Part shown: positions 42,876-43,706 of the stretch, piece after piece | Layout of the letters: each line of letters starts with the position of its first letter | How positions within the stretch are numbered: the first letter of the stretch is position 1 | NCBI GenBank assembly: GCA_964418665.1 | Contig: CAYQLZ010000007.1 | Location: 29,886 to 93,885, forward strand | Origin: an uncultured Dehalococcoidia bacterium | Lineage (GTDB): Bacteria; Chloroflexota; Dehalococcoidia; Lucifugimonadales; GCA-2712585 | Direction of reading: 5' to 3' | Length of the DNA: 64,000 nucleotides | The notes under the pieces: model-generated | What the model saw: the letters and a program-made list of their open reading frames with translations, nothing else | Told to the model about the DNA's origin: nothing | Databases searched by the model: none | Made by a program: the position numbers and the translations under genes

Positions 42876-43706
42876 ATGAACGACAGGAACGACTTTGCAC
42901 ATCCCGAATTCCTGACAAGCACCGAATGGCTCGGCGAGCACCTGGACGACCCCGGTATTCGTGTCGTCGACTGCGACGTTCCCGAACAGTACCAGCGTGC
43001 CCACATCCCCGGCGCCGTATTTCAGGAAGACCACTACCAGAAGGACCCGGACACCAACCGGCTCCACATCTTCGGCCCCGACGGCTTTAAGCAGTTGGCC
43101 GAGTCCCTCGGCATCGGCGACGACACCCTCGTCATAGCCTACGACAACTCCCGCGGCCTCTACGCCGCCCGCCTCTGGTGGGCCCTCCACCACTACGGTC
43201 ACACCAACGTAAAGGTCATGGACGGCGGCTGGCGCAAGTGGCTCTCCGAAGGACGCCCCATTTCCGACTTTCCAGCCGGAGACCCTCCCGCCGTGACTTT
43301 CACACCCAAGCAGGACGACTCCATGATGGTGAGGGCGGATGGGCTCATGGAGGACATGAACAACCCGGACGCCGTGGTCTGGGACGTGAGGAGCCGCGGC
43401 GAATACGAGGGCACAACCACCCGCGGCAACCGAAGGCCCGGCCGAATAGCCGGCGCCGTTCACCTCGAATGGCTGGAGCTTGTCGACGGCAGGACGCACC
43501 TGCTAAAGCCCGCCGGCGAAATTCGTCGCATCCTGGAGGACAACGGCATCACCCCGGACAAGCGCATCGACGCTCATTGACAGGCGGGCATCCGTGCGGC
43601 GCACGGCACCTTCGTCCTCAAGCTTCTCGGCTACCCCGACGCCCGAAACTACGACGGCTCATGGGCCGAATGGGGCAACCGCGACGATACCCCCATAGAG
43701 GTCTGA
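42876..43706 (+). CDS. two-domain rhodanese (thiosulfate/3-mercaptopyruvate sulfurtransferase-like) with an in-frame TGA (predicted selenocysteine, U235) at the catalytic Cys position
   Basis: The track ORF stops at TGA 43578-43580 after ...[10 protein letters not shown]. The same frame continues [41 protein letters not shown] to the TGA at 43704-43706. This reproduces the rhodanese active-site loop C-x-x-G-x-R and the YDGSW-EW tail. The whole span of 831 nt is in frame. Confidence 0.75.
43592..43606 (+). promoter_or_regulatory. candidate bacterial SECIS hairpin for the rhodanese UGA
   Basis: CCGUG-CGGCG-CACGG (5-6 bp stem with a G-rich apical loop) starts 11 nt after the UGA. Confidence 0.35.

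Follow-up and report, generated by a model that had tools for sequence, protein, structure and literature searches.

A predicted selenocysteine at the catalytic position of a two-domain rhodanese from an uncultured Dehalococcoidia bacterium

Gene, reading frame and domain architecture

The DNA studied here (the window) is a 64,000-nucleotide stretch of contig CAYQLZ010000007.1 from an uncultured Dehalococcoidia bacterium, and contains a gene for a two-domain rhodanese-type sulfurtransferase in which an in-frame TGA is predicted to encode selenocysteine (Sec). The annotated open reading frame (ORF; 42876..43580, plus strand) specifies 234 aa and terminates at this TGA. Beyond it, 41 further codons remain open in the same frame up to a second TGA, and the coordinates and frame given in a preliminary description of this DNA, made from its letters alone, are correct (Table 1). 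Domain searches were run on the 276-residue product with Cys put in at codon 235. The product contains two PF00581 rhodanese domains in two stretches (Pfam, E=1.9e-33), and aligns over its full length with the two-domain rhodaneses 1UAR, 1E0C, 1RHD and 1URH. The best structural match is Thermus rhodanese 1UAR (E=1e-51, residues 7–274). The N-terminal domain is presumably non-catalytic, in line with established knowledge of two-domain rhodaneses. Codon 235 lies opposite the catalytic-loop Cys of 1UAR (CRIAERS), 8K55 (CRIGERS) and RhdA 1E0C (CQTHHRS), in agreement with the earlier proposal that the TGA stands in the place of the catalytic Cys.

Compared with the Cys-containing two-domain rhodaneses (1UAR, 1E0C, bovine 1RHD and E. 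coli SseA, 1URH), the window protein has the same fold, domain order, catalytic-loop place and YDGSW.EWG tail. It differs from them in the predicted Sec for Cys and in its loop, UQAGIRA, which is neither the CG[ST]GVT of 3-mercaptopyruvate sulfurtransferase (MST) nor CRIGERS/CRKGVT. An SseA identity was rejected on the same loop and on the score of the NCBIfam 3-mercaptopyruvate sulfurtransferase model NF008557 (134 bits, cut-off 250). The NCBIfam profile search of the product returned no model that covers the Sec rhodanese form.

Table 1. Features of the predicted selenoprotein gene and of related elements in the window.
Feature	Position	Strand	Description
Predicted selenoprotein gene, complete	42876..43706	+	276 codons (M1...U235...V276) and true stop; two-domain rhodanese-type sulfurtransferase
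N-terminal rhodanese domain	42918..43247	+	Residues ~15–124; best Pfam stretch 15–124
In-frame UGA, predicted Sec codon U235	43578..43580	+	Opens catalytic loop U-Q-A-G-I-R-A
Read-through tail, 41 codons	43581..43703	+	…LLGY…NYDGSW.EWGN..DTP…; completes catalytic rhodanese domain
SECIS-like hairpin CCGUGC-GGC-GCACGG	43592..43606	+	Stem 43592–43597 with 43601–43606 (CCGUGC/GCACGG), loop GGC 43598–43600
True stop	43704..43706	+	Also TGA, no hairpin after; from frame reading
tRNA-Sec (selC)	51462..51558	-	Anticodon UCA; ARAGORN; Rfam RF01852, 75.7 bits (gathering 47), E=9.8e-14
AhpC/TSA peroxiredoxin, predicted selenoprotein	35267–35734	-	155 aa; UGA 35597–35599 at peroxidatic Cys, FDFTGG-U-TNE; PF00578 E=4e-36

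Sec and Cys at the catalytic column

The product was compared with the 120 nearest protein clusters (P0001–P0120) from a collection of 5.8 billion sequences, and the DNA with 80 GTDB species-representative genomes, which are mostly metagenome-assembled genomes (MAGs) of Dehalococcoidia/SAR202, plus Candidatus Binatia and Entotheonella (loci are designated L below). At the protein level, 96 of the 120 clusters stop exactly one residue short of the Sec/Cys column, one more is short and ends before that point, and all full-length clusters (23/23) have Cys at the column, within C-Q-[AG]-G-[IV]-R. The truncation at this column is confirmed and far beyond chance; the earlier remark was likewise that a random nonsense mutation would be unlikely to hit this very residue. 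At the DNA level, the codon is TGA in 77 of the 80 species genomes, which span three phyla, and TGC or TGT in three; TAA, TAG and TGG do not occur there. The tail is kept at all 80 loci, and every TGA leads into it in frame. This alternation of TGA and TGY is the standard signature of a Sec/Cys pair. The preliminary description had also suggested that Cys be counted against Sec at this column and that the TGA itself be checked. The count gives the 77 to 3 division above, and the independent assemblies of three runs, SRR8304783/4/5, all contain an identical gene, TGA and tail included.

The 96 truncated clusters are 233–242 aa long, cut at the Sec codon, and are named 'sulfurtransferase', 'thiosulfate/3-mercaptopyruvate sulfurtransferase' or 'hypothetical protein' (e.g., MBM3926134.1 and PKB78682.1). 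Database truncation of the Sec rhodaneses is a systematic mis-annotation.

The 41-codon tail carries protein-level selection

To characterize the tail, ratios of nonsynonymous to synonymous differences (pN/pS) were estimated pairwise by the Nei-Gojobori method over 82 Sec-form genes. Codons +10 to +37 after the UGA have a pN/pS of 0.36 in the rhodanese frame, with pS at 0.65 and thus near saturation, and the 20 codons 5′ of the UGA have a pN/pS of 0.46. In contrast, shifting the frame of these tail nucleotides by one or two positions yields 1.2–1.5, which indicates purifying selection on the protein that the tail encodes in the rhodanese frame. The tail contains no in-frame ATG, GTG or TTG and would thus be made only by read-through. 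The substitution pattern shows that the tail is translated and completes the catalytic domain, as the earlier view of the 41 codons as the conserved remainder of the domain had it.

A small conserved hairpin follows the UGA

A hairpin resembling a selenocysteine insertion sequence (SECIS) element lies within the codons Ile-Arg-Ala-Ala-His-Gly. It consists of 6 bp and a 3-nt loop, starts 11 nt past the UGA, as had been noted before, and places its apical loop 20 nt from the UGA's first base. Both distances and the G that opens the loop agree with bacterial SECIS elements, as exemplified by the minimal element of fdhF and by the model of bSECISearch. Like the E. coli fdhF-type SECIS, the window hairpin is located in coding sequence at this distance and has a G as the first base of the apical loop, whereas it is much smaller, lacks the bulged U and has another sequence.

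At codons +4 to +8 (Ile-Arg-Ala-Ala-His), the wobble positions are 96–100% invariant, with entropies of 0.28, 0.23, 0.21, 0.00 and 0.00 bits; four-fold sites outside these codons mostly have ~1.2–1.8 bits. Likewise, pS over the five codons is 0.054, compared with 0.65 in the flanks. The low-entropy bases are exactly those that form the 6-bp hairpin. The identical 15-mer is present in 62 of the 82 genes, and standard pairs occupy 96.5% of the alignment cells, a value that drops to 18–61% when the 3′ partners are slid by 1–3 columns. At one pair, a compensatory change from G-C to U-A occurs in 6 distinct sequences. It comes with Ser in place of Ala and Asn in place of His, at codons +6 and +8, which suggests that RNA pairing shapes the protein sequence. 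The carriers are L013, L016, L023, L024, L026, L028, L035 and L068. Five Sec genes retain four or fewer of the six canonical pairs, and each of them instead forms another hairpin there, of 7 bp and with a loop that opens with G; L060 and L066 retain five of the six pairs.

As Cys-form controls, 9–11 genes were usable, and a metagenome scan for more yielded mostly distant CRIGERS-type rhodaneses. Arg+5 is encoded by CGU in 74/77 Sec genes but in only 2/9 of the Cys genes whose peptide is identical (Fisher p=7.5e-7); of all Arg codons in this genome, 12% are CGU. An intact hairpin is found in 71/77 Sec genes versus 1/9 Cys genes. These comparisons indicate that the hairpin is conserved as an RNA element and that this conservation is particular to the Sec forms.

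Apparent recent exchange between Sec and Cys

The Sec gene at L063 (2897–3736, TGA) and the Cys gene at L165 (283–1122, TGC) differ at 2 of 840 nt, and one of the two differences falls on the last base of the active-site codon. The near-identity of this pair suggests that Sec and Cys are interchangeable at this codon over very short timescales. The L165 Cys gene retains the full hairpin, and in a rough neighbour-joining tree the Cys forms are scattered inside the Sec clade.

The bases around the codon are also biased. The base before the UGA (window position 43577) is U in 76/85 Sec genes, as TAT or CAT, versus 2/11 Cys genes (p=1.7e-6), although TAT and CAT make up only ~16–18% of the Tyr and His codons in this genome. 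A U before the UGA may be a context requirement for recoding. The base after the UGA is C in all 82 Sec genes.

Two Sec-rhodanese paralogs, both with TGA and hairpin, stand 1–2 kb apart at L011 (9759 and 10703), L015, L017, L018, L033 and L080. In L011 and L033, whose tails were inspected, the second paralog has a divergent C-terminal end (…WANL.E..APM…). No conserved gene neighbourhood of the Sec rhodanese was found; the best neighbour family occurs in 24 of 78 loci, and the surroundings hint at no pathway.

Selenocysteine decoding in the host

A tRNA-Sec gene lies 7.9 kb downstream of the rhodanese gene, where the preliminary description had placed one at 8 kb, and is detected by both ARAGORN and Rfam. 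In the three closest relatives, L001 (on CBDBNU010000002.1, 93% identity), L002 (on OZ250180.1, 84%) and L003, a syntenic tRNA-Sec gene is located 5–7 kb downstream of the rhodanese, and at the Binatia locus L062 a tRNA-Sec gene is 1.2 kb away. At gathering thresholds, tRNA-Sec is the sole Rfam match, with no SECIS family. Many ordinary genes of the window terminate in TGA, which shows that UGA has not been reassigned throughout.

When in-frame TGAs flanked on either side by coding signal were sought, a second UGA-containing gene emerged, for an AhpC/TSA peroxiredoxin. A stem-loop begins 12 nt downstream of its UGA (z=-2.7), and the TGA is kept in L001 and L002, while Cys homologs (FTGVCTTE) are present in L009, L014, L023, L025, L026 and L035. 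The motif is of the same type as that of the known 'TxxU' peroxiredoxins. MAGs of Dehalococcoidia are recorded with 46–49 selenoprotein genes (BSepDB, PMC13326102).

Other candidates were rejected. The TGA junctions at 16712 (+) and 39489 (-), where a coding-like frame stays open past the TGA, separate adjacent genes, namely GcvT/GcvH and two split-enzyme subunits; such junctions, at 16208–17398 (+) and 39018–40589 (-), are false positives for naive Sec scans. The 527-aa rhodanese at 60001–61584 (+) has four domains, Cys loops (CAGRTRS and CDGRVRS) and a true TGA stop. A thioredoxin gene (51649–52002, -) adjoins the tRNA-Sec gene, and no in-frame TGA was detected within it; the listed 402-aa ORF is an artefactual N-terminal extension.

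Assignment of UGA235

We predict that UGA235 encodes Sec in place of the rhodanese catalytic Cys, with a probability of about 0.9. Several points weigh against this assignment. The 85 related Sec sequences behind the counts are not independent events, and the compensatory change may represent perhaps one or two events only. The Cys-form control is small (n=9–11) and includes L165 with its full hairpin. The hairpin itself is very small, and its support is evolutionary, not thermodynamic. Folding, which the preliminary description had proposed as a check, recovers the hairpin within the minimum free energy structure, but shuffled sequences fold at least as well as the 73-nt region past the UGA (z=+0.52), and the hairpin is absent from the RNAalifold consensus of 63 columns; energy-based tests are uninformative for so small an element. 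No selA, selB or selD was found by Pfam among 40 window proteins (~29 plausible genes), and tblastn with E. coli SelA, SelB and SelD against the window and the 80 loci (1.5 Mb) produced one weak GTPase match; since ~20 kb per genome was sampled, this search says nothing either way. The literature searched contains no biochemical characterization of any Sec COG2897 rhodanese.

The best-surviving alternative, which we nevertheless consider very unlikely, is that UGA235 is read through not, or not only, as Sec, either by near-cognate insertion of Trp or Cys or by a Sec machinery that puts in Cys under selenium shortage. A UGA stop is leaky when the next base is C, and the invariant +1 C of the Sec genes provides this context; Cys is clearly functional at this position, and the missing selA, selB and selD (window and 80 loci) also fit this alternative. 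However, passive read-through needs neither a Sec-specific hairpin at SECIS distance nor a tRNA-Sec gene, Trp at the position of the catalytic nucleophile would inactivate the enzyme, and the strict alternation of TGA and TGY without TGG fits Sec/Cys.

It is considerably less probable that UGA235 is a genuine stop, with a functional 234-residue product and a downstream conservation that does not stem from translation. Gene callers and databases do annotate the gene in this way, as the 96 clusters of 233–242 aa illustrate. Nevertheless, purifying selection on the tail is codon-periodic and confined to the rhodanese frame, the tail encodes the conserved rest of the rhodanese domain, no conserved overlapping gene was seen, and the truncated protein would be left without its nucleophile and about a third of its catalytic domain. 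A pseudogene, or a TGA from sequencing or assembly error, would require a single base change from TGC or TGT, but we regard it as already refuted by the comparative data: the TGA recurs in the 77 species genomes of three phyla and in the identical sequences of the three run assemblies, and the gene has no other disruptions, with selection intact on both sides of the codon.

Relation to known selenoproteins

A 'rhodanese-related sulfurtransferase, COG2897' was among the 15 new selenoprotein families of the Sargasso Sea, with 3 sequences and a drawn SECIS (Zhang, Fomenko, Gladyshev 2005, PMC1088965). The Global Ocean Sampling analysis of 2008 counted 8 Sec sequences versus 3,367 Cys homologs for cd01449 (PMC2398784), and Sec COG2897 rhodaneses also appear in surveys of 2022 and 2026 (PMC9312934, PMC13188914), in the last of which they are listed as 'form 4, UxxG' (PMC13188914). 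The novelty of a Sec rhodanese that the preliminary description implied was therefore overestimated.

The window gene almost certainly belongs to this known family, judging from its sequence features; the published representatives MCY3690685.1 and AACY01016424 were matched by description only, and neither is listed in the ten NCBI-sourced clusters examined. It shares with form 4 the two-domain SseA/TST-type architecture, U-x-x-G (here U-Q-A-G), the Sec/Cys pair with abundant Cys homologs, a SECIS-like hairpin downstream of the UGA and a marine uncultured host, and nothing differs in kind. Whereas published form 4 is counted as rare, Sec is the majority form in the CQ[AG]GIRA subfamily studied here (77/80 species genomes), whose hosts are identified as chiefly Dehalococcoidia/SAR202, with Binatia and Entotheonella. 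The other Sec rhodaneses, forms 1–3 (COG0607/PspE-like, CxU 'LYCAU' NF041203) and form 5 (TsoB), likewise carry Sec at the active site of a rhodanese homology domain or close to it (PMC13188914). Forms 1–3 are single-domain by their assignment to COG0607/PspE and NF041203 (a 126-position profile), form 5 is a rhodanese/DsbD fusion, and the motifs of all of them differ from that of the window protein. NF041203 matches the window protein weakly (37 bits, cut-off 115) and in the wrong region.

The literature searched, supplements and BSepDB itself aside, appears to contain neither Sec as a subfamily rule nor the Dehalococcoidia/SAR202 hosts, and the same holds for a minimal conserved hairpin that constrains active-site residues, the preferred U before the UGA, the uniform database truncation and the NCBIfam gap.

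Proposed mechanism

Under the Sec assignment, the hairpin 11 nt past the UGA would recruit SelB with Sec-tRNA(Sec), which would outcompete release factor 2 at UGA235 and insert Sec; translation would then run through the 41 codons and complete the catalytic domain. By analogy with the chemistry of Cys rhodaneses, the Sec selenolate would replace the Cys thiolate in the double-displacement cycle. It would take sulfane sulfur from a donor such as thiosulfate, forming an Se-S(-) adduct, and hand it to an acceptor. The loop is not of the MST type and the SseA model scores below its cut-off, which makes a thiosulfate-like or persulfide donor more likely. The perselenide or selenosulfide chemistry suggested in the preliminary description is speculation, and a role of the Sec rhodanese as a selenium carrier is possible but unsupported.

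A broader picture can be drawn, which as a whole we hold to be rather doubtful. In marine Dehalococcoidia (SAR202) and a small number of other lineages, this rhodanese subfamily would have Sec as its default and probably ancestral form and would have switched to Cys repeatedly and recently. A minimal 15-nt SECIS would lie in the catalytic-loop codons, its pairing co-evolving with the active site, and the U before the UGA would be selected. The Sec enzyme, with an Se-S or Se-Se adduct, would act either as a high-turnover sulfane-sulfur carrier in the sulfur and organosulfur metabolism of these bacteria or as a selenium-delivery protein for selenophosphate synthetase. If selenium delivery were its role, the enzyme would be a selenoprotein that acts in selenium assimilation itself.

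Other features of the window

Directly 3′ of the rhodanese gene lies a low-GC island (43751–45729, +; GC 0.46 versus 0.61 for the window), which contains a 282-aa ORF of unknown function and a D12-class N6-adenine DNA methyltransferase and is probably a restriction-modification module that was acquired. Another D12 methyltransferase lies at 57249–58130. Between the island and LutB/CCG lactate-utilization-like genes, a HEPN-domain protein (PF05168; 46175–46678, -) with small ORFs beside it possibly forms a HEPN/MNT toxin-antitoxin pair with them.

Implications

The window gene is a new, mis-annotated member of a predicted family, in a lineage already known to be rich in selenoproteins, and the picture of which kinds of selenoproteins exist is unchanged. 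The truncated entries, together with the NCBIfam gap, suggest that the selenoproteins counted so far in the abundant dark-ocean Dehalococcoidia are too few. The literature searched appears to contain no characterization of a rhodanese with catalytic Sec, and the near-isogenic pair L063/L165, along with the many Cys relatives, would lend itself to examining how selenium contributes to sulfane-sulfur transfer. In the small conserved hairpin, where two amino acids change along with one compensated base pair, an RNA signal clearly constrains an active-site loop.

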